Source: Myxococcota bacterium
Lineage (GTDB): Bacteria > Myxococcota_A > Polyangia > Polyangiales > Houyiibacteriaceae
NCBI GenBank assembly: GCA_028284955.1
Contig: JANQQS010000102.1
Coordinates: forward strand, 76,275-140,274
DNA length: 64,000 nt
Direction of reading: 5' to 3'
Shown piece after piece: positions 2 to 64,000 of this stretch (the stretch's first letter is position 1; every line of letters begins with the position of its first letter). Both the position numbers and the translations under genes were made by a program. The notes under the pieces were generated by a model. That model was given only the letters and a program-made list of their open reading frames with translations, made no database searches and was not told the origin of the DNA.

Positions 2-1912
2 TGGTTTTGTTCGGAGCTCATCCGTGGCTATGGAGCCGAGGTCGATACGGCTCGCGATGGAGCGAACGCGCTCCGCATCGCACGCCGTCGGCGACCTGAC
101 GCGATCGTGACCGGGTTGTTGATGCCGGGAATGGATGGTCTGACGCTGGCTCGAGAGATCGAGCAGGACCCAGCGCTTTTTGGGGTTCCGCTTGCGTTTC
201 TGCCGGAGCACCACGAAGCGTTCGCCCGCATGCGCGAGCTGGGCGAGAGCGGGGGGGCTGAGCTGCGGCGCGAACGCAGCGCGGCAGAAATCGTGCGACG
301 CGTGGCGAATCTGCTGCGGCCGCGACTTCGGCTTGAAGAAGAGCTGCGAGATTTCAAACGGTCGGTTGGAGGGCGAATCGAGTCGACGGGTTTGCTGCCT
401 CTCTTGCACTCTGTGGCGGAGCATCGAGGTTCGGCTCGCGTGAGTTTAAGAGACGGAGAAAGCCTGTTTGAGATCGATATTCAAGAAGGCGACCTCGTTC
501 ACATCACGCGGACCGCTATGGACGGAACATTTGCGCGCGGGCCGCGGGCGCTTACCCAGATGCTGGGAGTGGGCCAAGGACGCTTCCACGTTGAGCCACC
601 AGCTTCGTCGGTTCGACCGAGCGTCGGTTCGGGCCGCCTTCACGATACGCTTCGGGACCCTGTCGATCGCCTGCGTTCCACGATCGATGCAGTAAAGGCA
701 GGCGCCCTTTCGCATGCCGCGGAGGTCGAGTTCGATGCAGACGCACTCGCATCTATCGTTCGGAACGCGCCTCCTCGTGTCCAATCCCAGATTGAACGTC
801 TTCGTGCGGGCGAGGGGCCGCGAGCGATGCTGATGTCGGGCACGGTGGAGCCACACTCCCTCGAATCACTGCTGGTTAACTTGGCTCGCCGAGGTGTTCT
901 GATTGCGGTACGGGACGAGCATGGTTCCGACCGACCCGCAGCGCAGATCGAACACGACAATACGGAGTCACCGCCCGGTTCCGCGCGCGGCGACGAAGCG
1001 TCTCCAGCCGAGGTTACGCGGATAAGCGACGAACTCTGGACCGACAGCGACGACGCATGGGTGTTCGACGAGTCATCGATGGACACTGTCGACACCTCCC
1101 GCGAAGTATCCGCATCGGAGTCGGCGTCCGGTTTGTCTGTGTCCGATAAACTTCAGCCCCATCAACCTGGAACGGACGAGCGAACCGCGTCTCGCAACGC
1201 GGCAGGTGTCCTGGAAAGCGACCCCGTTAACACGCCGCCGAGCATCCCGCCGAACCCTTCGGATCCGCCAGGCGAATCAGGGGTCATGGATGAACCGCAG
1301 CCCGCGGTCGATTTGGAGCCGGGCGACCAAGCTCCCTATTCGCCGGATCTAGAAACCGATACCGACCAGCTGCGCATGCGGAATGTTCGCCGCTCGCCGA
1401 TGCAACGGATACTTTGGGCCGCAGGATGGCTCGTGTTGCTCGCCGCGTTGGCTACGGCGGGTTTTGTGGCGATGAGTATGGCGCGCGAGCACGGGTGGCT
1501 GTCGCCAAAATCGTCGCGCCAGGAATCGCCGGGCGAGGGTACCTCCCGCCCGGCCACTGCGACGGCGGCGGCGGATCCGAAAAAGGCGATGGTCGTCGAA
1601 GAGCAAGCAATTGCGAACACGGCAACCGGGAAACCTACAGCGGAGACGGCGATCGAGTTTGGCGAGACGCTCAATCATATCGAAGACGCCAACGTCGATG
1701 TTCCAGCCGAGCATGGGCTATTGATCGTGAATCAAGCGGCAGACGGCATCAACGCGCGCATTCGAGTGAACGGTTCAGAGGTTGGCGTAGCCCCGCTGCA
1801 AGTCGCGCTGCGCGAGGGGCAACACGAGCTCGCGTTCGTATACGGCGATCAGACGGTGTACCGATACGTATTCATCCGCACGGGACAGACACGAGTGGTT
1901 CCACAACGCTAG
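2..1912 (+). CDS. Response-regulator receiver protein (5' end outside the window) with a DUF4388-like region, one TM helix and a C-terminal PEGA-like domain
   Basis: The frame is open from base 2: 'VDTARDGANALRIARRRRPDAIVTGLLMPGMDGLTLAREI' is a REC core with the phospho-Asp region and MPGMDG turn. 'GRIESTGLLPLLHSVAEHRGSARVSLRDGE..FEIDIQEGDLVHI' resembles DUF4388. The hydrophobic stretch is 'ILWAAGWLVLLAALATAGFVAM'. The C-terminus 'IRVNGSEVGVAPLQVALREGQHELAF' is PEGA-like. Confidence 0.75.
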   Translation, partial: WFCSELIRGYGAEVDTARDGANALRIARRRRPDAIVTGLLMPGMDGLTLAREIEQDPALFGVPLAFLPEHHEAFARMRELGESGGAELRRERSAAEIVRRVANLLRPRLRLEEELRDFKRSVGGRIESTGLLPLLHSVAEHRGSARVSLRDGESLFEIDIQEGDLVHITRTAMDGTFARGPRALTQMLGVGQGRFHVEPPASSVRPSVGSGRLHDTLRDPVDRLRSTIDAVKAGALSHAAEVEFDADALASIVRNAPPRVQSQIERLRAGEGPRAMLMSGTVEPHSLESLLVNLARRGVLIAVRDEHGSDRPAAQIEHDNTESPPGSARGDEASPAEVTRISDELWTDSDDAWVFDESSMDTVDTSREVSASESASGLSVSDKLQPHQPGTDERTASRNAAGVLESDPVNTPPSIPPNPSDPPGESGVMDEPQPAVDLEPGDQAPYSPDLETDTDQLRMRNVRRSPMQRILWAAGWLVLLAALATAGFVAMSMAREHGWLSPKSSRQESPGEGTSRPATATAAADPKKAMVVEEQAIANTATGKPTAETAIEFGETLNHIEDANVDVPAEHGLLIVNQAADGINARIRVNGSEVGVAPLQVALREGQHELAFVYGDQTVYRYVFIRTGQTRVVPQR

Positions 1913-5660: not shown

Positions 5661-6577
5661 GCTTGCACATGATACCGGATGCGTTGCGCAAGCGGGTCAT
5701 ATTCGAGCGCGTTTGCATCGGCCCGGATATGCACATCAGGTTCGCCTCGAAACCAGTTTCGTTGCCGGCGCGCATAAAGGCGCGTGGACTTTCGAATGAG
5801 GCGAAGCGTTTCTTCTTTGGATACACCATGCTTCAGGTGGGCGACGATTTCTCGGTATCCCACGCTGTTTAGCGCGCGAGCGGTATCGCCGTATCGCGCA
5901 TGCAGCGCTCGAGTTTCTTCGAACCAGCCGCTTGCGATCATTTTCTGGATTCGATGTTCGATGCGTTCGGTGAGTTTTTCCATCGACGATTCAAGCACGA
6001 TAAACAGAGTCCGGTAGCGCAGAGCGCCCAGCTTGTGTTGGGTGTGCAATGCGCCGAGAGGCGTTCCCGTCTGTGCGAATACTTCAAGCGCGCGTACCAC
6101 GCGTACGATGTCGTTCTTATGAATACGGTTGGCTGATATCGGATCGACGGCAGCGAGTCGACGGTGCAGCGTTTCGACACCCTGGGTGCGCGCTTCGCAT
6201 TCGAGCTCTGCTCGCAGAGCGGTGTCGACGGCGGGGAGATCGAGAAGTCCGCGCGTAAGCGCACGCAGCCAGAGGCCTGTGCCGCCGACGACGAGAGGCG
6301 TTTTTTTTCTTCGTTGTACGTTCTCGATTGCTGCGTCGGCGAGCTCCGCGTAATGCATCGCGTCGACGCGTTCGTCAGGTTCATGAGTATCGATGAGGTG
6401 ATGGTTGATGGTGCCGAGTTCCGCGTTTGTTGGCTTTGCTGAGCCGATATCGAAACCACGGTAGATCTGCACGCTGTCTGCGCCGACGAGCTCTCCGTTC
6501 ACTCGGCGCGCCAGTTCGAGCGCGAGATGGGTCTTGCCCGATGCCGTCGGGCCAGCGATCACAACGAGCGGACGCAC
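5657..6577 (-). CDS. miaA: tRNA dimethylallyltransferase
   Basis: 'VVIAGPTASGKTHLALELARRVNGELVGADSVQIYRGFDIGSAKPT' is the P-loop plus MiaA signature. Lies directly downstream of mutL, as in many bacteria. Confidence 0.95.
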   Translation of the reverse strand: MRPLVVIAGPTASGKTHLALELARRVNGELVGADSVQIYRGFDIGSAKPTNAELGTINHHLIDTHEPDERVDAMHYAELADAAIENVQRRKKTPLVVGGTGLWLRALTRGLLDLPAVDTALRAELECEARTQGVETLHRRLAAVDPISANRIHKNDIVRVVRALEVFAQTGTPLGALHTQHKLGALRYRTLFIVLESSMEKLTERIEHRIQKMIASGWFEETRALHARYGDTARALNSVGYREIVAHLKHGVSKEETLRLIRKSTRLYARRQRNWFRGEPDVHIRADANALEYDPLAQRIRYHVQA

Positions 6578-6580
6578 AGG

Positions 6581-8416
6581 TCAGCGTCCCAATCGTCGTT
6601 CGATATCTGCGAACGATACATGATGCGCGATCGGTCGGCCGTGTGGGCAATGCGTGGCGAACGAATCGATGTCGTCTAGGTCTCCGAGCAAGGCTTCACA
6701 CTCGGGGATCGAAAGTTCATCCCCGGCACGAATCGCGGCGTGGCAGGCCATGGTCGCGAGCGCCATATCCACGGCATCTCCGAAGCTGCGATCCGCCTCG
6801 CGCAGCAGCTCTCCGATCAGGTCTCGAAGCAAACGTTCGCCGGAGGCCCGGCTGAGAAGTACGGGCACGGAGTGGACTGCGACGGTGGTTTCTCCGATGC
6901 GCGTGGTTTCGAGGCCCGCGCGGGAGAATACCGCCTCGTGTTCTTCGACGAGCGCCGCTTCGTCGCGCTCGAGCTCTACCCGTTCGGCGAAAAGCAGTCG
7001 TTGTTTGGCGATGTCGTTGGCGGCATGGTTTTGGCGCATGCGATGGTAGAGCCGTCGTTCGTCCGCCGCGTGCTGGTCAATGAAATACACGCCGTCGTCG
7101 CCTTCGCAGACGATGAGCATGCGACGGACTTGGGCGAGTACGCGCAAAGACTTGAAAAAACCCGTTTCGGCGATGAGTCGTCCGGGCTGCGTCGCGTCGC
7201 TCGATGCGAGCGAAGGGGCCGCCGTCGCTGCATACGGCGTGGCCGGTCGCTCGGCGACTCCCGTTTCGTTAGACTTGGCCAACGCTTGGGCGATTCCCCA
7301 GGCGTCGTACGAGCGGCCGACCGCGTCGGGTGATGCAGCATCGGTTGTGATGCGCTGGTCCTTGGCGATACGCCGGTCCCAAAAGTCTGGCGAACGAGTG
7401 GTGCTTCGGCCCCAGGGTTGCAGCCCGAGTTTGCCCGCCAGGTTGCGGGTTAGCGCGTCGAGCACGGCTCGTTCATTGGTGAACCGCACTTCCGATTTTT
7501 GAGGGTGCACGTTGACGTCTACTTCGCCAGGGTCGATGTCCAGGTGCACGACTCCGACCGGATAGCGTCCCGGCGGGATGACGCTGCCGTAGGCAAAAGC
7601 TACTGCGCGAGCGAGTTTGTGGTCGGTCACCGGTCGGCCATTGACGAAGAACAGCAGGCTCCGTGTGCCGCTTCGTGCGCGTTCCGGCGCCCCGAGCGCG
7701 GCGCGTAGTTTGAGCGGCGAAGATAGAGACGCGATCGGAGATTCGAATTCCAAGTTGGAAAGATGTTCGTCTCGAAACACGCGCTGCGCGCGAACCAACG
7801 CGTCCGGCGCCGGAAGGTACTCTCGGACTCGCTTCCCGTTGCTATCCAGCGTCAATCGAATGTGTGGATGGGCCAGCGCAACCCGTAGGCAGATATTGCC
7901 AATGTGGCCGTTTTCCGTTTGCGCGCTTTTGAGAAACTTGAGCCTCGCGGGAACGTTATAGAACAGCTCGCGAACCTCTACGGTGGTCCCCGGGGCGCAT
8001 CCAGTTTCCGTCTCGTCGGTGCGTTCTCCGCCCTCGATACGGATTTTCGTGCCGGCCACGGCGTGTGGCGGACGCGTGGTCAGTTCAAAGCGAGATACTG
8101 CCGCAATCGATGGAAGCGCCTCTCCTCGAAACCCGAGCGTGCGCAGCGACGCGAGGTCATCAAACGCACGAATTTTGCTTGTGGCATGTCTTTGCATGGC
8201 CAATCGTGCGTCTTCAGGTTCCATTCCCGAGCCGTCGTCGGTCACCCGAATCATCTCCCGCCCTCCTTCTTGCACCTGGATGGAGAGACTGGTCGCACCT
8301 GCATCGATGGCGTTTTCGATGAGCTCCTTGACGACGCTTGCAGGGCGTTCGACGACTTCCCCAGCGGCGATTTGGTCGACGAGGGCATTGTCCAGTACGC
8401 GTACGCGAGTCGGCAT
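6581..8416 (-). CDS. mutL: DNA mismatch repair protein MutL
   Basis: 'LDNALVDQIAAGEVVERPASVVKELIENAIDAGA', 'DDGSGM' and 'LGFRGEALPSI' are GHKL ATPase motifs. The C-terminal dimerisation/endonuclease region is present. Confidence 0.95.
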   Translation of the reverse strand: MPTRVRVLDNALVDQIAAGEVVERPASVVKELIENAIDAGATSLSIQVQEGGREMIRVTDDGSGMEPEDARLAMQRHATSKIRAFDDLASLRTLGFRGEALPSIAAVSRFELTTRPPHAVAGTKIRIEGGERTDETETGCAPGTTVEVRELFYNVPARLKFLKSAQTENGHIGNICLRVALAHPHIRLTLDSNGKRVREYLPAPDALVRAQRVFRDEHLSNLEFESPIASLSSPLKLRAALGAPERARSGTRSLLFFVNGRPVTDHKLARAVAFAYGSVIPPGRYPVGVVHLDIDPGEVDVNVHPQKSEVRFTNERAVLDALTRNLAGKLGLQPWGRSTTRSPDFWDRRIAKDQRITTDAASPDAVGRSYDAWGIAQALAKSNETGVAERPATPYAATAAPSLASSDATQPGRLIAETGFFKSLRVLAQVRRMLIVCEGDDGVYFIDQHAADERRLYHRMRQNHAANDIAKQRLLFAERVELERDEAALVEEHEAVFSRAGLETTRIGETTVAVHSVPVLLSRASGERLLRDLIGELLREADRSFGDAVDMALATMACHAAIRAGDELSIPECEALLGDLDDIDSFATHCPHGRPIAHHVSFADIERRLGR

Positions 8417-31118: not shown

Positions 31119-32294
31119 TTAGAACTGGCCGGCAAGCACCAATCCTCCGCCCTGCGGCGTGATCGCGGGAGCGAGCCGAGCGCGCACGGGCTTGGGCTTT
31201 CGGGCTTTCTTTTCATCGTTGACGTTTTCGTCGTTGGAGCCCTTGTCACCGGAGCCCTTGTCGCTGGAGCCCTCGTCCTTCACCAAGCGGTCCCGCAAAT
31301 CTTGATAGGCCGACCATCGTCGTTCCGCGTCGGAGCGCGTGGCGAGGTTGATGATGCCGCTGATCACCGAAATCCCTGAACCAATAAGCACGAAGTAATC
31401 GAACGGGTCGTCGACTTCGAAGTTGTTGGGGCCCAAGAAGAGAGGAATCACCGAAAGCCCCACGGCAATATTGATCGATGCGTTGAGCACTCGGGTCAGC
31501 CGGGTTCGCTTGGCGATGTGCTCGAGCGAGCTTTCCCCATACGCGAGCCGATGCTGCACTTGGGGCAACGTCTGCATCGGCATGTGGGAGTATTTGATCG
31601 ATGGGGTCGACGCATTGGGGGTGAGCGCGAGATCCAAAATGCCGCGGGTGATGTTGGCGCCGCCCCAGAGCCAGAGGTAAGCGCGGAGCGGTTTGTCATC
31701 GACCCAGACTCCGATACCGATGGAAAGGCCGCCCGTGACGATCGAAAGCACGCCATCGACAATACGATTGCTGCCGCGCCCCGCGAGTACCTGGAGGTCC
31801 GTATCGAGCACGCGAAGGCGCGTGACGATTCGGCTGGGAATCGGCGTGCCGTCGTCGGTGGTGATGCCCGCGCGTGCGGTGTAGCCGCGTTGACCGCTCG
31901 GATACTGGTTCGCTGAAGGAGGCTGAGGAATACGGTAGGGGGCAGGGGTCGTGCCCTCCGGGGGCGGAGGAATCGCAGAGTCTTTCGGCGGGGTCGCGGT
32001 GCTCGGTGTGTCTTGAGTCGCGGGCTCAGAGTTCTGCGCGGGAGCGTCGGGCGATCGGTCTGCGGATGGAGGCGGGCCCCCTCGCGGCGGGCCGAGATTT
32101 GCGCCGCTTTCGCTCGATTGAGTTGTCCTGGATGGGGGCGTGCCGGTTGAAGGTGTATTGGTTGAAGGCGTATTGGTTGAAGGCGTATTGGGCGGAGATG
32201 TCTGGGCGTGCGCTGCGGACGCAGCAACCAGCGCCGCGATACCTACGGTGTACGCAAACTGAACTCGACGGCTGAGCGAGGGACCAATCACCAA
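31119..32294 (-). CDS. Hypothetical membrane protein with a Pro/Thr/Ser-rich N-terminal region and about four TM helices
   Basis: The signal-like segment is 'VGIAALVAASAAHAQ', followed by 'NTPSTNTPSTNTPST'. The hydrophobic segments include 'VLSIVTGGLSIGIGVWV' and 'INIAVGLSVIPLFLG'. No recognisable domain. Confidence 0.55.
   Translation of the reverse strand: MVIGPSLSRRVQFAYTVGIAALVAASAAHAQTSPPNTPSTNTPSTNTPSTGTPPSRTTQSSESGANLGPPRGGPPPSADRSPDAPAQNSEPATQDTPSTATPPKDSAIPPPPEGTTPAPYRIPQPPSANQYPSGQRGYTARAGITTDDGTPIPSRIVTRLRVLDTDLQVLAGRGSNRIVDGVLSIVTGGLSIGIGVWVDDKPLRAYLWLWGGANITRGILDLALTPNASTPSIKYSHMPMQTLPQVQHRLAYGESSLEHIAKRTRLTRVLNASINIAVGLSVIPLFLGPNNFEVDDPFDYFVLIGSGISVISGIINLATRSDAERRWSAYQDLRDRLVKDEGSSDKGSGDKGSNDENVNDEKKARKPKPVRARLAPAITPQGGGLVLAGQF
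31236..31280. repeat. 15-bp x3 in-frame tandem repeat (GGAGCCCTTGTCACC-like) in the 3' part of the 31119-32294 gene
   Basis: Read directly. It encodes 'EGSSDKGSGDKGS' on the minus strand. Confidence 0.75.
32146..32190. repeat. 15-bp x3 in-frame tandem repeat (GTTGAAGGCGTATTG) in the 5' part of the 31119-32294 gene
   Basis: Read directly. It encodes (NTPST)x3 on the minus strand. Confidence 0.85.
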
Positions 32295-32409
32295 AAGCCT
32301 GTCGCGGTCGCCCTAGCGCCGCATAACTAGCGTAGGGCCCGGCCTTTGTGGTGTCAAAAAGCCAAGGAGGTCACTAAAGTTCGCGCGCCCATGATCCGAA
32401 GCGCCAGGT

Positions 32410-33357
32410 ATGGATGTTCGTAAGCTCAAGGATTACCGCGCCATGATGGCCGACACGGTGCGGATGGCTGCCTACGCGGAAGCGATCAGCGCGTCGTGTC
32501 CCGGTCGGGTGGTCTGCGAAATCGGGGTCGGTCTCGGGCCGCTTAGTCTGATGGCGCTGCACGCGGGCGCGCAGCGCGTATACGGAATCGAAGTGGACCC
32601 ACAGGTGCTCGGCCTCGCAACCGACGTGATCCGTAGTCACGGGTTCGATGACACGCAGTTCATTCCCGTGGAGGGTTTATCCACCGATGTGGAGCTTCCC
32701 GAGCCGGTCGACGTGATTCTTTCGGAGACGCTCGACAGCCTCGGCGTGGGGGAAAATACCGCGAGCTACATGACCGACGCGGGGGCGCGATTTCTCAAGC
32801 CGGAGGGAAGGTTTTTGCCCGAGCGCCTCGATTGCTACGTCGCGCTTGCCGCGCCCGAGGAATACGGCTCGCGCGAGCGATTCTGGGTCGATCTGGACGG
32901 CCTCGGGCTGGACTACACGCGAGTGCAACCGTCGGTGCGCGGCGTCAAGCACACGCTGGTCGTGCGGCCCGATGAATTGCTCAGCGGTTTTGCCCGCTGG
33001 CAGTCGATCGATTTTCGAAACGCGGGCTCGTTTTGCCAGCGTTCGCCAGTCGTGCTCCAGGCCAACAAATCGGGCCTCGCGACTGGGCTGGCGAGCACGT
33101 TTGTGGCCGTGCTCCACAAAGACATTGTGATCAGCACCTTTCCCGATGCTCCGCCGACCCACTGGAAGCAGGGCTTTGCTCCGTTTCCAGACCGCGCCAT
33201 CGAACTCAACGTTGGCGATCTAGCGTTCGCGGAAATCGAAATCGGGGAACATCGCGGCCCGTCGATCGAATACCAGCTCCAGGTGGCGGCGGGTCCACCG
33301 GATCGGATGACTCGGTTTTTGAAGCGCCGCCTCGCCGAGATGGAACGTGCGGCGTGA
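32410..33357 (+). CDS. Protein arginine N-methyltransferase (PRMT, type I)-like SAM-dependent methyltransferase
   Basis: Motif I is 'VVCEIGVGLGPLSLMALHAGAQRVYGIE'. The double-E loop is 'SETLDSLGVGE', with two Glu nine residues apart (nt ~32722-32754). The THW loop is 'PPTHWKQG' (nt 33157-33165). A C-terminal beta-barrel-sized domain follows. Confidence 0.75.
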   Translation: MDVRKLKDYRAMMADTVRMAAYAEAISASCPGRVVCEIGVGLGPLSLMALHAGAQRVYGIEVDPQVLGLATDVIRSHGFDDTQFIPVEGLSTDVELPEPVDVILSETLDSLGVGENTASYMTDAGARFLKPEGRFLPERLDCYVALAAPEEYGSRERFWVDLDGLGLDYTRVQPSVRGVKHTLVVRPDELLSGFARWQSIDFRNAGSFCQRSPVVLQANKSGLATGLASTFVAVLHKDIVISTFPDAPPTHWKQGFAPFPDRAIELNVGDLAFAEIEIGEHRGPSIEYQLQVAAGPPDRMTRFLKRRLAEMERAA

Positions 33358-33379: not shown

Positions 33380-36300
33380 CTACGAATTCGGTTTGATGAG
33401 AAACCAAAGCGACGCGTCGCCGATTTGGGCCTTGTGGGGGGAGCCCTCCGTCGATGGCTCTGCCGAAGGTTCCGTCGAACGATCCGACGACTCCACGTCG
33501 TAATGGGTCGCGATCGACGTCATCCCTTCGGGGAGCATTGTAAAGCCAGTCGTCGACAGCGTTTCCTTGACGATGAAGTCTTCGTGCTCCTTTATCGCTT
33601 GGCGGAGTTCGCCTTTGGCGGCCCAGGTGACAGCGATGCGCGTTTCGAAGGCGAGATCATCTTCTTTGCGGGCGCGCTGGATGCGGTTGACGACTTCTCG
33701 CGCGAGGCCGGCTCGCTTCAGTTCGTCTGTCACCCGAGTGTCGAGCACGACCACGCGCCCTCGCTCGGCGGCGGCGGCGAAGTTCTCTTTGGCGCGGAGA
33801 CGAATTTCGACTTCATCTGGACCGAGGGTGATTTCCTCGCCATCGAGGTCGATGCGGAAATGTCCTTTTTCAGACATCTCTGCGTGCAGCGCCGAGCCGT
33901 CGGCGGCGGCGAGCGCCTTCTTGCAGGCCGGCACTTTCTTTCCGATCTTGGGTCCGAGCACACGGAAGTTTGGCACCAGCACGTAGTCTACGAATCGCTC
34001 GGGCTCTTCCGAGAAGGAGACGCTTCGTACATTCAACTCGTCGCCGATGGCGTCTTTGAATTGCTCGATGCGGGCGCGGTCGGCGTCATCGGCGACGACG
34101 ACGATGGCTTCTGCGAGCGGCTGACGAACGCGCAGTTTGGCCTCGTTGCGCACGCGCTGCCCGAGCGCCACGACGTCGCGTACGGCGGCCACGCTTTCGC
34201 GTAGCGCGTCATCCGCGCGGGACGCTTGGGGCTCGGGATAGGCGGCGAGATGCACCGACCGGCTGTCGTCGGGCGAGCGGCTCGCCGATGGGTTGCCGAC
34301 TAGGTTCTGGACCAGGTTCTGGTACATGGCGTCGGCCATAAATGGGACAAAGGGAGCGATCAATCGCGCGAGGTCGGTGAGGACTTCATAGAGCGTGGCA
34401 AACGCGGCGCGCTTGTCGTCGGTATCTTGGTCGGCCCAAAACCGATTTCGGCTGCGCCGGACGTACCAGTTCGAGAGCGCATCCACGAACGCTTGGATAT
34501 GTCGCACCGCAACGTGGCTGCGGTATCCGTCGAGCTCCGCGCGTACCGACCGTACCGCCTGGTCGAGCTCCGCGAGAATCCAGCGGTCCAGGTCCGGACG
34601 ATCAGCCAGGTCCGAACGACTAGCCTCGCTGCGCGGGGTCCATGCGTCGATATTTCCGTAGGTGACGAAGAAGCTGTAGACGTTCCAAATCTTGAGCAGA
34701 AACTCGCGCACCGCGTCGGTCGCGGCTTGATCTGAAAACCGGGTGTTTTGTCCCGGCACCGTGCCGGCGTAGAGCGCCCAGCGCACCGCGTCGGCGCCGA
34801 CCTTGTCCATGAGCTCCATGGGGTCGGTGTAGTTGCGATCTCGCTTGCTGAGTTTTTTGCCCTGCGCGTCGGTCATGAACCCGAGCACCACGCAATGCTC
34901 GAACGGGTGGGGGTATTTCCGCTCGGGAAAGAGCAGCGTGCTGATCGTCATGAGGGAGTAGAACCAGCCTCGCGTTTGATCCATCGCCTCGGTGATGAAA
35001 TCGGCGGGGAAACATCGCTCGAATGCTTCGGTGTTTTCATGGGGGTAGCCCCATTGCGCGAAGGGCATGCAGCCAGAATCGAACCAGCAATCGATCACGT
35101 CAGGCACTCGGCGATAGGTGCCGGGCTCCCCGGGCTTGGTCCAGGTGACTTCATCGATCCACGGTTTGTGCACCCGAAGGTGTTCGCTGAGCTCGGGGTT
35201 TTCTTTCTGCGCCGCGTCGAAATGGGCGAACGCCTGTGGGTTGCGTTCGAGAATCTCCGCCACCGACCCCACGGCCTCCATGGCGCCGGTTTCATCGTTG
35301 ATCCAGATAGGCAGAGGCGTGCCCCAAAACCGTTCTCGAGACAGCGCCCAATCGACGTTGCCGGCCAAAAACTGACCGAAGCGCCCGTCTTGCACGTGCC
35401 CCGGTTCCCAATGCACCTGCTGATTGTTTTCTTGTACGCGGCTGATTTCTTGGGTGGTGCGAATGAACCAGGAACGGCGCGCGTACTGGATCAGCGGGTC
35501 GCTCATCTTGCGCCAGCAGTAGGGATACTCGTGGCGGTAGACTTCTTCTTTGAAGAGCAGTTCTGCTCGGCGCAGATGGCGAATGATGTCTCGGTCGGCT
35601 TCTTTGCAGAACCGCCCGGCAAACTCCGTCACCTCCGGGGCAAAGGTTCCGTCGGGGCGGACGAGCTGCAAAAAACCCAGCCCTTCGGCTTTGCAGACCC
35701 GAAAATCGTCTTCGCCAAACGCCGGCGCGCAATGGACAAGCCCGGTGCCGCTGTCGAGCTCCACAAAGTCGGCCGCGATGACGCGATGGGCAGGGCCACC
35801 TTCGGGCTCGGCGTAGCGGAAGGGCGGGACATAGGCGGCGCCAATCCAGTCTGCCCCAGGCCGCGTTTCAAGGATCCGATGAGGCTGCTCACCGATGACT
35901 TTGGAGACCAGCGTTTCGGCGAGGACCACGCGTTCGGAGGAATCGGTGAGCTCGACCGTGGCGTAGGTTTTGTCGGCGGCGATGGCGAGCGCGATGTTGG
36001 AAGGAAGCGTCCATGGCGTGGTCGTCCACGCCAGGAAAGAAAGGCGATCGTCTTCTTGTGACCGAAACCGAACCACGACCGAAGGGTCGTCCACTTCTTG
36101 ATAGCCCTGGCCCACTTCGCCCGCCGAGAGCGCGGTGCCCCCCTGCGCCCACCACCACACGACTTTGTAGTCTTGATATAGAAGGCCTTGATTAAATAGT
36201 TCGCGAAGCGCCCACCAGACGCTCTCCACGTACTGCCGATGGAATGTGACGTAGGCGGCGTCGAGATCGACCCAAAACCCAATGCGCTGGGTCATGCGCC

Positions 36301-36694
36301 GCCACTCGTGAATGTAGCGAAATACCGAGTCGATACATTTCTCTGCGAACGGTGCGACGCCGTAGGCTTCGATGGCGTCGCGCCCGCTGATTCCGAGCTC
36401 CCGTTCGACTTCTACTTCGACGGGCAGGCCGTGGGTGTCCCATCCCCCGCGACGGGGCACCGAGTAGCCACACATGGTGCGGTATCTCAGGAAGACGTCT
36501 TTGACGACCCGGGTCAGCACGTGGCCGGGGTGGGGCATTCCGTTCGCGGTAGGAGGCCCTTCGAAAAACACGAATGGTTTGCCGCTCTGGTTTTTTTCGA
36601 GCGACCGCGCGAACACATCGTTTTGTTCCCATTCGCGCAGCTGCGCCTGGTCGAGTTCGGGAAACGAAACATCAGATGAAACCGGCCTGAACAT
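33380..36694 (-). CDS. ileS: Isoleucine-tRNA ligase (type 2)
   Basis: 'FVFFEGPPTANGMPHPGHVLTR' is the HIGH region and 'GKKLSKRDRN' is KMSKS. About 1100 aa with the editing domain. Confidence 0.95.
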   Translation of the reverse strand: MFRPVSSDVSFPELDQAQLREWEQNDVFARSLEKNQSGKPFVFFEGPPTANGMPHPGHVLTRVVKDVFLRYRTMCGYSVPRRGGWDTHGLPVEVEVERELGISGRDAIEAYGVAPFAEKCIDSVFRYIHEWRRMTQRIGFWVDLDAAYVTFHRQYVESVWWALRELFNQGLLYQDYKVVWWWAQGGTALSAGEVGQGYQEVDDPSVVVRFRSQEDDRLSFLAWTTTPWTLPSNIALAIAADKTYATVELTDSSERVVLAETLVSKVIGEQPHRILETRPGADWIGAAYVPPFRYAEPEGGPAHRVIAADFVELDSGTGLVHCAPAFGEDDFRVCKAEGLGFLQLVRPDGTFAPEVTEFAGRFCKEADRDIIRHLRRAELLFKEEVYRHEYPYCWRKMSDPLIQYARRSWFIRTTQEISRVQENNQQVHWEPGHVQDGRFGQFLAGNVDWALSRERFWGTPLPIWINDETGAMEAVGSVAEILERNPQAFAHFDAAQKENPELSEHLRVHKPWIDEVTWTKPGEPGTYRRVPDVIDCWFDSGCMPFAQWGYPHENTEAFERCFPADFITEAMDQTRGWFYSLMTISTLLFPERKYPHPFEHCVVLGFMTDAQGKKLSKRDRNYTDPMELMDKVGADAVRWALYAGTVPGQNTRFSDQAATDAVREFLLKIWNVYSFFVTYGNIDAWTPRSEASRSDLADRPDLDRWILAELDQAVRSVRAELDGYRSHVAVRHIQAFVDALSNWYVRRSRNRFWADQDTDDKRAAFATLYEVLTDLARLIAPFVPFMADAMYQNLVQNLVGNPSASRSPDDSRSVHLAAYPEPQASRADDALRESVAAVRDVVALGQRVRNEAKLRVRQPLAEAIVVVADDADRARIEQFKDAIGDELNVRSVSFSEEPERFVDYVLVPNFRVLGPKIGKKVPACKKALAAADGSALHAEMSEKGHFRIDLDGEEITLGPDEVEIRLRAKENFAAAAERGRVVVLDTRVTDELKRAGLAREVVNRIQRARKEDDLAFETRIAVTWAAKGELRQAIKEHEDFIVKETLSTTGFTMLPEGMTSIATHYDVESSDRSTEPSAEPSTEGSPHKAQIGDASLWFLIKPNS

Positions 36695-36803: not shown

Positions 36804-37661
36804 ATGGCAGAGATCATCGACGGCAAGGCGATTGCGAAGCGCGTTCGCGCAGAAGTTCGGGAGCGCGCGCTCGGACTGGCGGAGCGCCAGGGGCGCGCCC
36901 CGGGGCTGCATGTGGTGCTCGTGGGCGAGGACCCGGCGTCGCAGGTGTACGTGCGCAACAAAGAACGCGCGGCCGGCAAAGCAGGCATCGAGGGGAAGGT
37001 GCATCGGCTGCCGGAAGATACCGCCGAGCCGGCGCTGCTCGCGCTGATTGAAGAGCTCAACCAGGATGTCACGGTCGACGGGATTCTCGTCCAGCTGCCG
37101 CTGCCTGGTTCCCTCGATTCGGCACGGGTGGTGCGTGCGATCGACCCCGCGAAAGATGTCGACGGGCTGCATCCGGTCAATGCCGGCGAATTGATGCTCG
37201 ATGGTTCAGGCCTCACTCCGTGCACGCCCACGGGCTGCATGAAACTGATTCAGGAAACTGGATGCTCGCTAGAGGGGAGGCGCGCGCTCGTGCTCGGGCG
37301 CAGCCAGTTGGTGGGCAAACCGGTGGCGATGATGCTGCTTCGCCAGAACGCGACCGTGACTATGGCGCACTCCCGCACGCAGGATCTCGACGCCCGGGTA
37401 CGCGAAGCCGACGTGGTGATCGCGGCGGTAGGCAGACCGAAGTTGGTGCGCGGCGAGTGGATCAAGAACGGCGCCGTGGTGATCGACGTCGGCATCAACC
37501 GCGAGCCAGATGGAACCCTAGTCGGCGATGTAGACTTCGAAGCGGCGTCGGAGCGCGCGAGCCACATCACTCCGGTGCCCGGCGGCGTGGGCCCGATGAC
37601 GATCGCAATGCTGCTCGACAACACCGTCAAAGCCGCGGAAGGCCGAGAGCGAACGCGCTGA
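36804..37661 (+). CDS. folD: Bifunctional methylenetetrahydrofolate dehydrogenase/cyclohydrolase
   Basis: The FolD blocks are 'MAEIIDGKAIAKRVRAEV', 'VLVGEDPASQVYVRNKERA', 'GILVQLPLP', 'VLGRSQLVGKPVAMML' and 'PVPGGVGPMTIAML'. Confidence 0.95.
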   Translation: MAEIIDGKAIAKRVRAEVRERALGLAERQGRAPGLHVVLVGEDPASQVYVRNKERAAGKAGIEGKVHRLPEDTAEPALLALIEELNQDVTVDGILVQLPLPGSLDSARVVRAIDPAKDVDGLHPVNAGELMLDGSGLTPCTPTGCMKLIQETGCSLEGRRALVLGRSQLVGKPVAMMLLRQNATVTMAHSRTQDLDARVREADVVIAAVGRPKLVRGEWIKNGAVVIDVGINREPDGTLVGDVDFEAASERASHITPVPGGVGPMTIAMLLDNTVKAAEGRERTR

Positions 37662-62192: not shown

Positions 62193-63476
62193 TCATGGCT
62201 GCACCGGGCTCAGTGCGCCGAGCACCACACGAAGCGATTGCACCACCTGCTCGGCATCCTGCAGGGTCATGGCGGCATGCATGGGAAGCGTGATTTGCCT
62301 CGGAAGGATCGATTCCGCAACCGGAAGCGCGGCCGCCCAGGTGGCGCCCGAGGAGGTGGCACCCGAGGAGGTGGCACCCGAGGAGGTGGCGCCCGAGGAG
62401 CTGTCGCGCGCTTGCGCGTCGCGCTGGAACACGGGCATTTGATGACACGGCGGGCTGTAGAGCGCGCCGATCTCGATCTGGTGCTCTCTAGCCATGGCCT
62501 GCCGGAGCGTGTGTCGATCCACGCCTTCGGGAATCAGTACGGGATACTTGTAGTAGGCGGGGGCGGCATCGGTGCGTGGCGAGGGAAGGGTGATTGCGCC
62601 GCGGTCCGGGGGACTGTCCTCGAGCAACTCGTCGTAGCGCGCCGCGATTGCCCTGCGTACGGAAAGAAACTCGTCGAGCCGTCGAAACTGGTTGAGCGCC
62701 ACCACGGAGCGCACTTCATCGAGCACCCAGTCGTTCCCTGGTCGTTCGATATGTTCGAGCGACGCGCCTTGTCCGTGGTGGCGAAGCGAGCGAGCGTAGT
62801 CTGCGAGTTCGTCGTCGTCGGTGGTAAGCATTCCGCCCACCCCGCAGGTGAGTATCTTGGTGGGATAGAATGAAAAACACCCTGCGTAGCCGAGGCTTCC
62901 CGCTTCCTTGTCGGAAGGGCCTGTCCCATCCGCACGGGAGACGTTGAGCGTTGCGCCATGGGCGTGCGCGCAATCCTCGACGATCGGAATCGAGCGTTTG
63001 CGGCATGCTTCGGTGAGCGCGTCGAGCCCTTTCGGAATGAAGCCGGCCACGTGCACCACAACGACGGCGGCGGTGCGGTCGCTCAAGCGCGCGATGGCGT
63101 CTTCCGCGTCGATTCCGTAGTCGTCTTGGTTCATGTCGGCGAAGATCGGAGTCCCGCCCGCGAATCGAACCGCGTTCGCGGTGGCGACGAACGTATTGGT
63201 GGGGACGATCACTTCTCGCCCCGCCACGTTGAGGAATCGGAATACGATCTCCAGCGCGGCGGTGCAGCTGGTCAGTGAAATCGCATGCTTCGTGCCGACA
63301 CGTGCGGCAAACGCTGCCTCGAGCTCCCTCGACTGCGGACCCAGAATCAAGCGACCGCCGCGCAATACGTCCCCAATCGCAGCGGTGATGGTGCGAATGT
63401 CTTCTTCGACGAAGTGCGGGCGGGCCGCGGAAATTGTTCGTTTGGATGCCGGCGTGCGTTCGGGGGGGCTCGTCAT
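62193..63476 (-). CDS. DegT/DnrJ/EryC1/StrS-family sugar aminotransferase carrying an in-frame (GATSS)4 insertion
   Basis: 'ARPHFVEEDIRTITAAIGDVLRGGRLILGPQSRELEAAFAARVG..LTSCTAALEIV' and 'FSFYPTKILTCGVGG'. The ATG at 63476 overlaps the upstream stop (ATGA). Confidence 0.88.
   Translation of the reverse strand: MTSPPERTPASKRTISAARPHFVEEDIRTITAAIGDVLRGGRLILGPQSRELEAAFAARVGTKHAISLTSCTAALEIVFRFLNVAGREVIVPTNTFVATANAVRFAGGTPIFADMNQDDYGIDAEDAIARLSDRTAAVVVVHVAGFIPKGLDALTEACRKRSIPIVEDCAHAHGATLNVSRADGTGPSDKEAGSLGYAGCFSFYPTKILTCGVGGMLTTDDDELADYARSLRHHGQGASLEHIERPGNDWVLDEVRSVVALNQFRRLDEFLSVRRAIAARYDELLEDSPPDRGAITLPSPRTDAAPAYYKYPVLIPEGVDRHTLRQAMAREHQIEIGALYSPPCHQMPVFQRDAQARDSSSGATSSGATSSGATSSGATWAAALPVAESILPRQITLPMHAAMTLQDAEQVVQSLRVVLGALSPVQP
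62341..62400. repeat. Four tandem 15-bp units (GTGGCRCCCGAGGAG) inside the aminotransferase gene
   Basis: Read directly. On the minus strand it encodes 'SSSGATSSGATSSGATSSGAT'. Confidence 0.9.
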
Positions 63477-64000
63477 GGTGTCTTGCTCGTGTGTTGCATC
63501 ATCTGAACGAGTTCGTTCATCCCGTGCTCGAGAGACACCGAAGGTTGCCATTCGAGGGCGGCCTCTGTGAGCTGTATATCGAGACTGCGGGTCGGCCAGG
63601 TTTTTCCGGGCGGCGCTTCTTGTCGGACGATTGTGGGCTGCGATCCAAGGCGCGCTCCCGATTCCTTCGCGGCCGCGGCAAGCTCCGCGATGGTGTATGT
63701 TTGACCGCTTCCGATATTGAGGGCGGGAGGGAGCGGTTCGCGATCGAGCGCGCGCTCAAACGCTCGGGTTACATCGTCCACATGCACGAGGTCGAGGCGC
63801 TGTTGCCCGTCGCCGTACATGGTGATGTCCCCGCCGCTCGCAGCGGCGCGCGCGAAACGCTCGGCGACGCCCTGAATACCCAAGTCGACCCCGATGCCTG
63901 CGCCATACACATTGGCCATCCGGAGGGCGGTGCCCCCGCCCCATGCCGACCACGCATGTTCGGCGGAGTCTTTAAGGGTGCCGTATAGGTCGTCTGGTTC
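63473..64000 (-). CDS. NAD-dependent sugar epimerase/dehydratase (SDR family), C-terminal part; the 5' end lies beyond the window
   Basis: The frame is open to base 64000: 'EPDDLYGTLKDSAEHAW' is the YxxxK catalytic motif, followed by 'RMANVYG' and 'GDGQQRLDLVHVDDV'. Confidence 0.85.
   Translation of the reverse strand, partial: EPDDLYGTLKDSAEHAWSAWGGGTALRMANVYGAGIGVDLGIQGVAERFARAAASGGDITMYGDGQQRLDLVHVDDVTRAFERALDREPLPPALNIGSGQTYTIAELAAAAKESGARLGSQPTIVRQEAPPGKTWPTRSLDIQLTEAALEWQPSVSLEHGMNELVQMMQHTSKTP

Follow-up and report, generated by a model that had tools for sequence, protein, structure and literature searches.

A stand-alone member of the protein arginine methyltransferase family in a Myxococcota bacterium

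Most reviews present arginine methylation by enzymes with the protein arginine methyltransferase (PRMT) fold as a means of regulation in eukaryotes, and the question addressed here is whether a single gene of a Myxococcota bacterium encodes a true PRMT and, if so, what it is likely to do. The gene (32410..33357) lies in a window of 64,000 nucleotides, the whole stretch of DNA that was analysed, taken from contig JANQQS010000102.1 (assembly GCA_028284955.1), and an initial annotation made from the sequence alone had proposed that it encodes a stand-alone homologue of eukaryotic type I PRMTs with a complete catalytic signature. We find that its 315-residue product is a true PRMT-family homologue whose catalytic signature falls short of complete, the eukaryotic YFxxY lid-helix motif being absent, and that, as judged from sequence, a predicted model and analogy with characterised enzymes, it is probably an active S-adenosylmethionine (SAM)-dependent arginine N-methyltransferase.

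Family membership, fold and active site

When the protein was compared with PDB sequences by phmmer, the best 60 matches were all PRMTs (including PRMT8, Hmt1/PRMT1, PRMT6, PRMT3, CARM1, PRMT2, PRMT7 and PRMT9; best E value 1.2e-18), with alignments spanning residues 10-276 and therefore both domains. The Pfam profile PRMT_C (PF22528) passed its gathering cutoff narrowly (28.5 bits vs 27, residues 143-257), generic Methyltransf_25/31 matches were obtained on residues 32-140, and an NCBIfam scan gave nothing near any cutoff, the best score being that of CpaM (30.5 bits vs 180). The three motifs quoted in the initial annotation are all present in the open reading frame (ORF), namely MMADTVRMAAYAEAI at residues 12-26, SETLDSLGVGE at 105-115 and PPTHWKQGF at 248-256, and they align residue for residue with type I PRMTs. 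In the phmmer alignments SETLDSLGVGE is paired with SEWMGYCLFYE, both glutamates being matched, and PTHWKQ with YTHWKQ of PRMT8/Hmt1; the remaining pairs include VCEIGVGLG with VLDVGSGTG, GIEVD with GIECS, FLKPEGRFLP with WLKPGGLMFP and MMADTVR with EMLKDEVR.

An AlphaFold2 model, for which an alignment of 29 family sequences was the input, reached a mean predicted local distance difference test score of 93.9 and a predicted template-modelling (TM) score of 0.90. The comparison with PRMT1, PRMT3 and CARM1 structures that had been suggested for this protein supports the assignment: with the model as query, the top 50 Foldseek matches in the PDB were all type I PRMTs (PRMT6, 3, 8, 1 and CARM1; E about 1e-28, TM 0.75-0.81, the highest with PRMT8 at a root-mean-square deviation of 2.7 Å). 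The alignments cover about 305-320 columns for the 315-residue query, and this whole-length match takes in both the beta-barrel and the helical dimerisation-arm segment. The earlier suggestion of a C-terminal domain of PRMT-barrel size is thus borne out by PF22528, by the strands of the model and by Foldseek. Within the barrel, the insertion at the arm position consists of two helices in the model (150-165 and 170-177), and its W159 is kept in 120 of the 125 members of the clade described below and is a tryptophan in eukaryotic cores as well. The C-terminal tail (residues 297-314) has no Pfam match.

The protein shares with eukaryotic type I PRMTs (PRMT1/PRMT8/Hmt1, PRMT3, PRMT6 and CARM1) the Rossmann domain and beta-barrel with an arm-like helical insertion, motif I, the post-I glutamate, the spacing of the double-E loop, the THW loop, the Asp-His pair and the Arg and Met of the N-terminal helix. 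It differs from them in its low identity (23-25% in Foldseek, 27-31% in local BLASTP alignments, about 70 bits in phmmer), in having neither the YFxxY lid helix nor an N-terminal targeting domain, and in the non-aromatic interior of its double-E loop, the Thr found in place of the PRMT1 M155 equivalent and an extra C-terminal helix.

An assignment to PrmA (the ribosomal protein L11 lysine methyltransferase) or to some other generic class I methyltransferase could be read into a weak match to Pfam PF06325 (19.1 bits), weak NCBIfam matches to L11 methyltransferases and the name '50S ribosomal protein L11 methyltransferase' given by NCBI to several bacterial PRMT-like relatives. The PF06325 score, however, lies below its cutoff of 22 and covers the generic Rossmann motif only (residues 32-108), the NCBIfam models reach 17.7 vs 183.15 (TIGR00406) and 23.9 vs 269 (NF001790), and the protein has the PRMT-specific barrel, double-E loop and THW loop, with a PRMT as every top structural match. 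No placement with small-molecule or rRNA methyltransferases was found, the glutamate pair and THW are kept on alignment, and it is hardly credible that this is a PrmA-type enzyme. As for the naming itself, the NCBI label is carried by P0272, P0274, P0302, P0303, P0329, P0336 and others, all of which contain PRMT_C; relatives of P0141 usually bear it too, while JGI calls them 'protein arginine N-methyltransferase 1'. The NCBI usage looks like a misannotation of systematic kind, brought about by the match of PrmA to the generic Rossmann motif.

Conservation was counted in the 125 members of the window protein's clade, with 246 other bacterial PRMT-like proteins for comparison. Both glutamates of the double-E loop, E106 and E115, are kept in 119 of the 125 (95% each), with eight residues between them as in PRMTs, and similar counts were obtained for motif I (G39 in 123, G41 in 125) and for the post-I E61 (119). 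In the clade motif I carries Glu, not Asp, and Cys30 is almost invariant. In the THW loop T250 is kept in 119/125, W252 and Q254 in 120/125 each and H251 in 90/125, the five-residue signature reading E-E-T-H-W in 69% of the clade and E-E-T-C-W in 22%. In the N-terminal helix, M12 (107/125, 86%), D15 (about 109/125, i.e., 84 and 21 plus four singletons) and R18 (117/125, 94%) are residues that we take to be the equivalents of M48, D51 and R54 of PRMT1. Thr117, at the position of PRMT1 M155, which is implicated in product specificity, is found in 102 of the 125 (82%), as against Met in all three eukaryotic cores.

The D15/H251 pair deserves separate mention. It is Asp-His in 84 of the 125 clade members; cysteine replaces the THW histidine in 28, and seven of these also have cysteine in place of the partner aspartate, a joint switch of the kind that contact between the two positions would predict. 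Such a C-C pair could form a disulfide or a metal site in place of Asp-His.

The catalytic signature thus stands as regards the double-E loop, THW, the Asp partner and motif I/post-I, and fails in one respect, the lid. In eukaryotic PRMTs the cofactor is covered by helix alpha-X with its YFxxY motif; in the window protein this helix is absent, M1 aligning only four residues into the Hmt1 crystal construct, and an in-frame TGA at 32392-32394, five codons 5' of the ATG, makes a longer N-terminus impossible. The motif was found in 0/125 clade members and in 1/246 of the other bacterial relatives, and its near-absence from them makes it look like a eukaryotic addition; it characterises the enzymes of eukaryotes, not the fold as such. 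The missing lid, together with the loss of the second glutamate or the THW histidine in some clade members, might suggest a catalytically dead or repurposed PRMT-fold protein, e.g., a SAM sensor or scaffold. Every catalytic residue examined is nevertheless intact in the window protein, and no columns of the family are better conserved than these, as one would expect if the enzyme is active; a loss of activity seems to us highly improbable.

Distribution and phylogenetic place

An indexed search returned 128 homologues at 40-56% identity, almost all of them 300-326 residues long, from sources named as Myxococcota, Polyangiales, Nannocystaceae, 'Deltaproteobacteria' and Krumholzibacteria metagenome-assembled genomes (MAGs); as a comparison of sequences, this range of identity across about 120 homologues of uniform length implies purifying selection on the family. 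Several of these homologues are already labelled 'type I protein arginine methyltransferase' or 'protein arginine N-methyltransferase 1' by JGI. In an exhaustive search of 1.84 billion representatives at 50% identity there were 7,166 matches at E<=1e-3, 3,372 at E<=1e-10 and 59 at E<=1e-30, totals which will also take in eukaryotic PRMTs; hundreds of the matches are bacterial, some of them fused to modules for the recognition of peptides that are ribosomally synthesised and then modified post-translationally (RiPPs) or to SEC-C modules. Beneath the close family lies a continuum of proteins of 300-390 residues (30-38% identity, 108-148 bits), and strong PRMT_C matches were obtained for the ten members sampled.

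The view that PRMTs are essentially eukaryotic, and the rarity in bacteria that it implies, was accordingly overstated: bacterial PRMT-fold proteins are abundant, many carry PRMT labels at JGI, and they have been described computationally as the source of the eukaryotic enzymes. In that description (PMC3417536, citing Aravind et al. 2011) the PRMTs of bacteria form a radiation of peptide methylases encoded in operons for secondary metabolites, from which the eukaryotic PRMTs came, and two PRMTs have been predicted in Legionella pneumophila (PMC10117894). Neither a characterised bacterial or myxobacterial PRMT nor a PRMT-fold RiPP methylase was found in the literature searched.

For one PRMT-like protein, P0141, the named relatives come from MAGs of Aminicenantia, Terriglobales, Myxococcales, Burkholderiales, Nitrospirae and Deltaproteobacteria; an archaeal origin of P0141 was considered and dropped, these MAGs being bacterial. 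Another, P0374, is among the members most like eukaryotic PRMTs; its 69-kb contig also carries QueC and genes for type II secretion/pilus, and it is therefore bacterial. A scan of genome contigs with the single protein, in which the search patterns were too specific, gave one distant locus only, L001. There (5989..6774) a 261-residue PRMT-like protein of a Deltaproteobacteria CG11 MAG, which keeps the double-E and THW loops and lacks most of the dimerisation arm, is encoded next to priA, def and fmt.

Eukaryotic type I cores (human PRMT8, yeast Hmt1 and human PRMT6, taken from HMMER alignments) were compared with 370 bacterial sequences. Their median scores were 74-80 bits against the window subfamily (n=115) and 108-124 bits against other bacterial PRMT-like proteins, where the highest scores were 166-179 bits and identity rose to 40%; human PRMT6 and yeast Hmt1 score 190 bits at 36% against each other, which is about the same as the bacterial maximum. 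In a neighbour-joining tree of 102 sequences and 268 columns (a rough distance tree rather than a maximum-likelihood one), the window subfamily forms one clade apart from the eukaryotic cores in 95 of 100 bootstraps, while the three eukaryotic cores group together in 96 and are tied weakly, in 51, to one bacterial group. The clade comprises 125 sequences, labelled mostly Myxococcota. The phylogeny that had been proposed as a check therefore yields a distinct clade but not the closest bacterial relative of eukaryotic PRMTs; the tree agrees with the bit scores in making it a divergent side branch of the bacterial radiation, and as such the clade tells us little of how the eukaryotic enzymes arose.

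The other bacterial PRMT-like proteins, which are the closest relatives outside the clade, have the same PRMT core with PRMT_C and likewise lack YFxxY, but they are nearer to eukaryotic PRMTs, have Asp in motif I where the clade has Glu, and many of them have tails resembling PqqD or the RiPP recognition element (RRE), have SEC-C tails or lie in RiPP-like clusters. With the predicted PRMTs of L. pneumophila and with Rv1988 of M. tuberculosis the window protein has in common a bacterial origin and arginine methylation that is predicted or shown (PMC10117894). By their descriptions, however, these are effector candidates of intracellular pathogens that target host proteins, whereas the window gene lies among housekeeping genes of an environmental bacterium.

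Genomic setting and the case for a peptide methylase

The coordinates of the gene, of the domains of its product and of the adjoining features are given in Table 1. As had been proposed, the gene looks monocistronic and lies between a gene for a hydrophobic protein, which is divergent and encodes 391 residues, and ileS, a convergent gene for an IleS-type synthetase. The hydrophobic neighbour has a signal-like N-terminus, a region with NTPST x3 and hydrophobic segments. In a scan for the sigma-70 consensus no match was found around the gene, and terminator-like matches were at background level.

Table 1. Features of the methyltransferase gene, its product and its surroundings (coordinates are those of the window)
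Feature	Coordinates	Strand	Evidence
391-residue divergent neighbour, hydrophobic, Pro/Thr-rich low complexity	31119..32294	-	no Pfam match
115-bp intergenic region between divergent genes, presumably with the promoters of both	32295..32409	.	
PRMT-family methyltransferase, complete coding sequence, 315 residues plus stop	32410..33357	+	ATG start; PDB phmmer, AlphaFold2 model, Foldseek
N-terminal two-helix segment, residues 1-29 (helices 3-13, 16-29)	32410..32496	+	phmmer alignment, DSSP of model
Rossmann-type SAM-binding domain, residues 30-140	32497..32829	+	alignment, model, conservation, generic Pfam
Rossmann elements: motif I VCEIGVGLG 35-43; post-I E61; motif III FLKPEGRFLP 128-137			
Double-E loop SETLDSLGVGENT, residues 105-117, E106 and E115	32722..32760	+	aligned to SEWMGYCLFYESM
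C-terminal beta-barrel, PRMT_C, residues 141-296	32830..33297	+	PF22528, model strands, Foldseek
Helix-turn-helix barrel insertion at arm position, residues 148-178	32851..32943	+	model, alignment to PRMT8/Hmt1 arm region
THW loop PPTHWKQ, residues 248-254	33151..33171	+	aligned to THWKQ of PRMT8/Hmt1
C-terminal amphipathic helix past last barrel strand, residues 297-314	33298..33351	+	model
1104-residue class I aminoacyl-tRNA synthetase, IleS-type, convergent	33380..36694	-	tRNA-synt_1, Anticodon_1, DUF5915
FolD, after ileS	36804..37661		

The public gene call for this protein (P0001) has 304 residues and starts at M12, with AAGGA 10 nt 5' of it; the two candidate starts lie within 32410..32445. 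The start at 32410 is poor in Shine-Dalgarno terms; it is nevertheless probably the true one, since residues 1-11 (consensus MDxRxLxDY) are kept in most homologues and form a confident helix in the model. No sign of recent acquisition was found in the composition of the gene, whose GC content at third codon positions (0.75) matches that of its neighbours (0.71-0.79), and the gene therefore looks native.

Within 15 kb on either side there are housekeeping and regulatory genes only, including those for an acetyl-CoA-synthetase-like enzyme, TonB, citrate synthase, a Ser/Thr kinase, a PEGA protein, ApbE, IleS, FolD, a sigma-54 response regulator and large TPR proteins. The many TPR giants, Ser/Thr kinases and sigma-54 activators, taken with the named homologues, suggest a Myxococcota genome. 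No gene for a non-ribosomal peptide synthetase (NRPS), polyketide synthase, RiPP, radical SAM enzyme or precursor peptide was found in this range. The methyltransferase gene also stands alone at six other clade loci, with different neighbours each time (ApbE/kinase; an MMPL transporter; a Ser/Thr kinase; phage-like small ORFs; PilZ/dynamin; TANGO2/hydrolase). A conserved neighbourhood was considered as a clue to function and had to be set aside, the seven loci having no common neighbour and ileS being adjacent in the window only; the gene taken as a candidate for ileS beside P0010 encodes an FG-GAP protein instead.

These surroundings bear on the most substantial alternative, namely that the protein is a peptide or natural-product methylase acting on arginine or another nucleophile of a ribosomal or non-ribosomal peptide encoded elsewhere. 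It would accord with the radiation of peptide methylases described in PMC3417536 and with an outgroup cluster of RiPP-like type, in which tandem PRMT-PqqD fusions accompany a radical SAM enzyme, ScmC and an NHLP-like precursor. C-terminal extensions of at least 60 residues are present in 108 of the 246 other bacterial PRMT-like proteins, and four of the six tails tested (of about 80 residues) match PqqD weakly, at 12.8-19.8 bits, although all of these tail matches fall under the Pfam cutoff of 23.4; PqqD domains detected by Pfam are present in the extensions of P0231, P0276 and P0313. The window protein, by contrast, has no fused PqqD- or RRE-like module and only an 18-residue helix beyond the barrel; in its clade the median extension is 22 residues, and 124 of the 125 members, like the window protein itself, lack one of at least 60. 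At none of the seven clade loci is there a neighbouring precursor peptide, radical SAM, NRPS or transporter gene of that kind, and the clade is split from the RRE-bearing groups in 95 of 100 bootstraps. A peptide methylase is therefore considered unlikely, though less so than the other alternatives.

The outgroup loci are of interest in their own right. At L014 (4508..7497) two tandem proteins of 498 residues, one of which is P0231, each consist of a PRMT core and a C-terminal PqqD (RRE) domain, and the surrounding RiPP-like cluster includes a radical SAM enzyme, ScmC, an S24 peptidase, a GT2 glycosyltransferase and a 67-residue NHase-alpha-like short ORF; the pair seems to represent a class of PRMT-fold enzymes that modify peptides and have yet to be characterised. 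At L012 (6972..10278) the 372-residue P0141 is encoded between a ThiF-type E1-like gene and a gene for a cysteine-desulfurase-type aminotransferase, which it overlaps by a few bases, a layout that hints at a sulfur-transfer or peptide-modification operon. Sixteen bacterial PRMT-like proteins (P0134, P0136, P0138, P0274, P0275, P0277 and ten others) end in a metal-binding tail of the SEC-C type, CPCGSGxKxKxCC, and we know of no description of such a PRMT/SEC-C fusion.

Proposed activity and significance

The reading that we prefer is that of an active arginine N-methyltransferase, and within it protein substrates appear more likely than peptides. The mechanism proposed rests on that known for PRMT1, PRMT3 and Hmt1. 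The protein would be a cytoplasmic, catalytically competent PRMT-fold enzyme in which SAM is held in the Rossmann domain by motif I, E61 and R18, the guanidinium group of the substrate arginine is clamped by E106 and E115 of the double-E loop, and the pocket is completed by the THW loop, with H251 paired with D15. The methyl group would be transferred to a terminal guanidino nitrogen, giving monomethylarginine (MMA) and probably asymmetric dimethylarginine (ADMA). The arm-like helical insertion suggests a dimer, as in eukaryotic type I PRMTs. Since the protein carries no recognition module, and its gene is accompanied by neither a conserved partner nor a biosynthetic cluster, the enzyme would most likely act in trans, its substrates being one or more proteins, or possibly peptides, whose genes lie in other parts of the genome. 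Type I-like chemistry (MMA, then ADMA) is suggested by the retained M12 and by a THW loop that is unlike the variant loops found in PRMT5, 7 and 9, but is made uncertain by Thr117 at the second specificity position.

Several observations weigh against this reading. The protein has no YFxxY motif such as helix alpha-X carries in eukaryotic PRMTs; between the glutamates of the double-E loop it reads TLDSLGVG where the eukaryotic enzymes read WMGYCLFY, and the product-type Met of PRMT1 is a Thr, differences that leave the shape of the pocket and the type of product uncertain; 22% of the clade have Cys for the THW histidine; and the nearest outgroup relatives include probable RiPP methylases. In addition, no candidate substrate of the RGG/GAR type is encoded in the window, as judged from a scan for RG/RGG-rich ORFs, and no paper with biochemical or proteomic data on the protein or its clade was found in the literature searched.

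The RG/RGG-rich ORFs that the scan did return were rejected as out-of-frame artefacts of GC-rich DNA. The best instance of this comes from a DegT/aminotransferase-like ORF of 452 residues (62193..63551, minus strand), which has a perfect SSGAT x4 repeat near its C-terminus; read on the opposite strand this repeat gives RGGG repeats and hence a false RGG-protein candidate.

A more specific proposal, which we put forward tentatively and with some doubt, is that the clade is a housekeeping-type bacterial PRMT that places MMA/ADMA on endogenous proteins, which might be RNA-binding, ribosomal or signalling proteins.

In conclusion, much of the background to this locus is already known: PRMT-fold enzymes are common in environmental bacteria, their ancestry to the eukaryotic ones has been published, and many are recognised by annotation pipelines. 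The novelty is modest and lies in a clade, well defined and mostly labelled Myxococcota, of minimal PRMTs that stand alone, have their active site intact and do without accessory domains. Ideas on PRMT origins are unchanged, because bacterial ancestry had already been proposed and the clade is not the nearest bacterial relative of the eukaryotic enzymes.

The 315-residue enzyme, while unsurprising to a specialist, is a reasonable candidate for a first biochemical study of an endogenous bacterial PRMT. As a stand-alone protein it offers a tractable entry to the question of whether bacteria use PRMT chemistry on their own proteins, and, having neither the YFxxY lid nor accessory domains, it could show what a minimal catalytic core needs. 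If the proposal is true, this would be the first PRMT-fold enzyme shown to run endogenous arginine methylation in free-living bacteria, and it would mean that the minimal core works without the eukaryotic lid helix.

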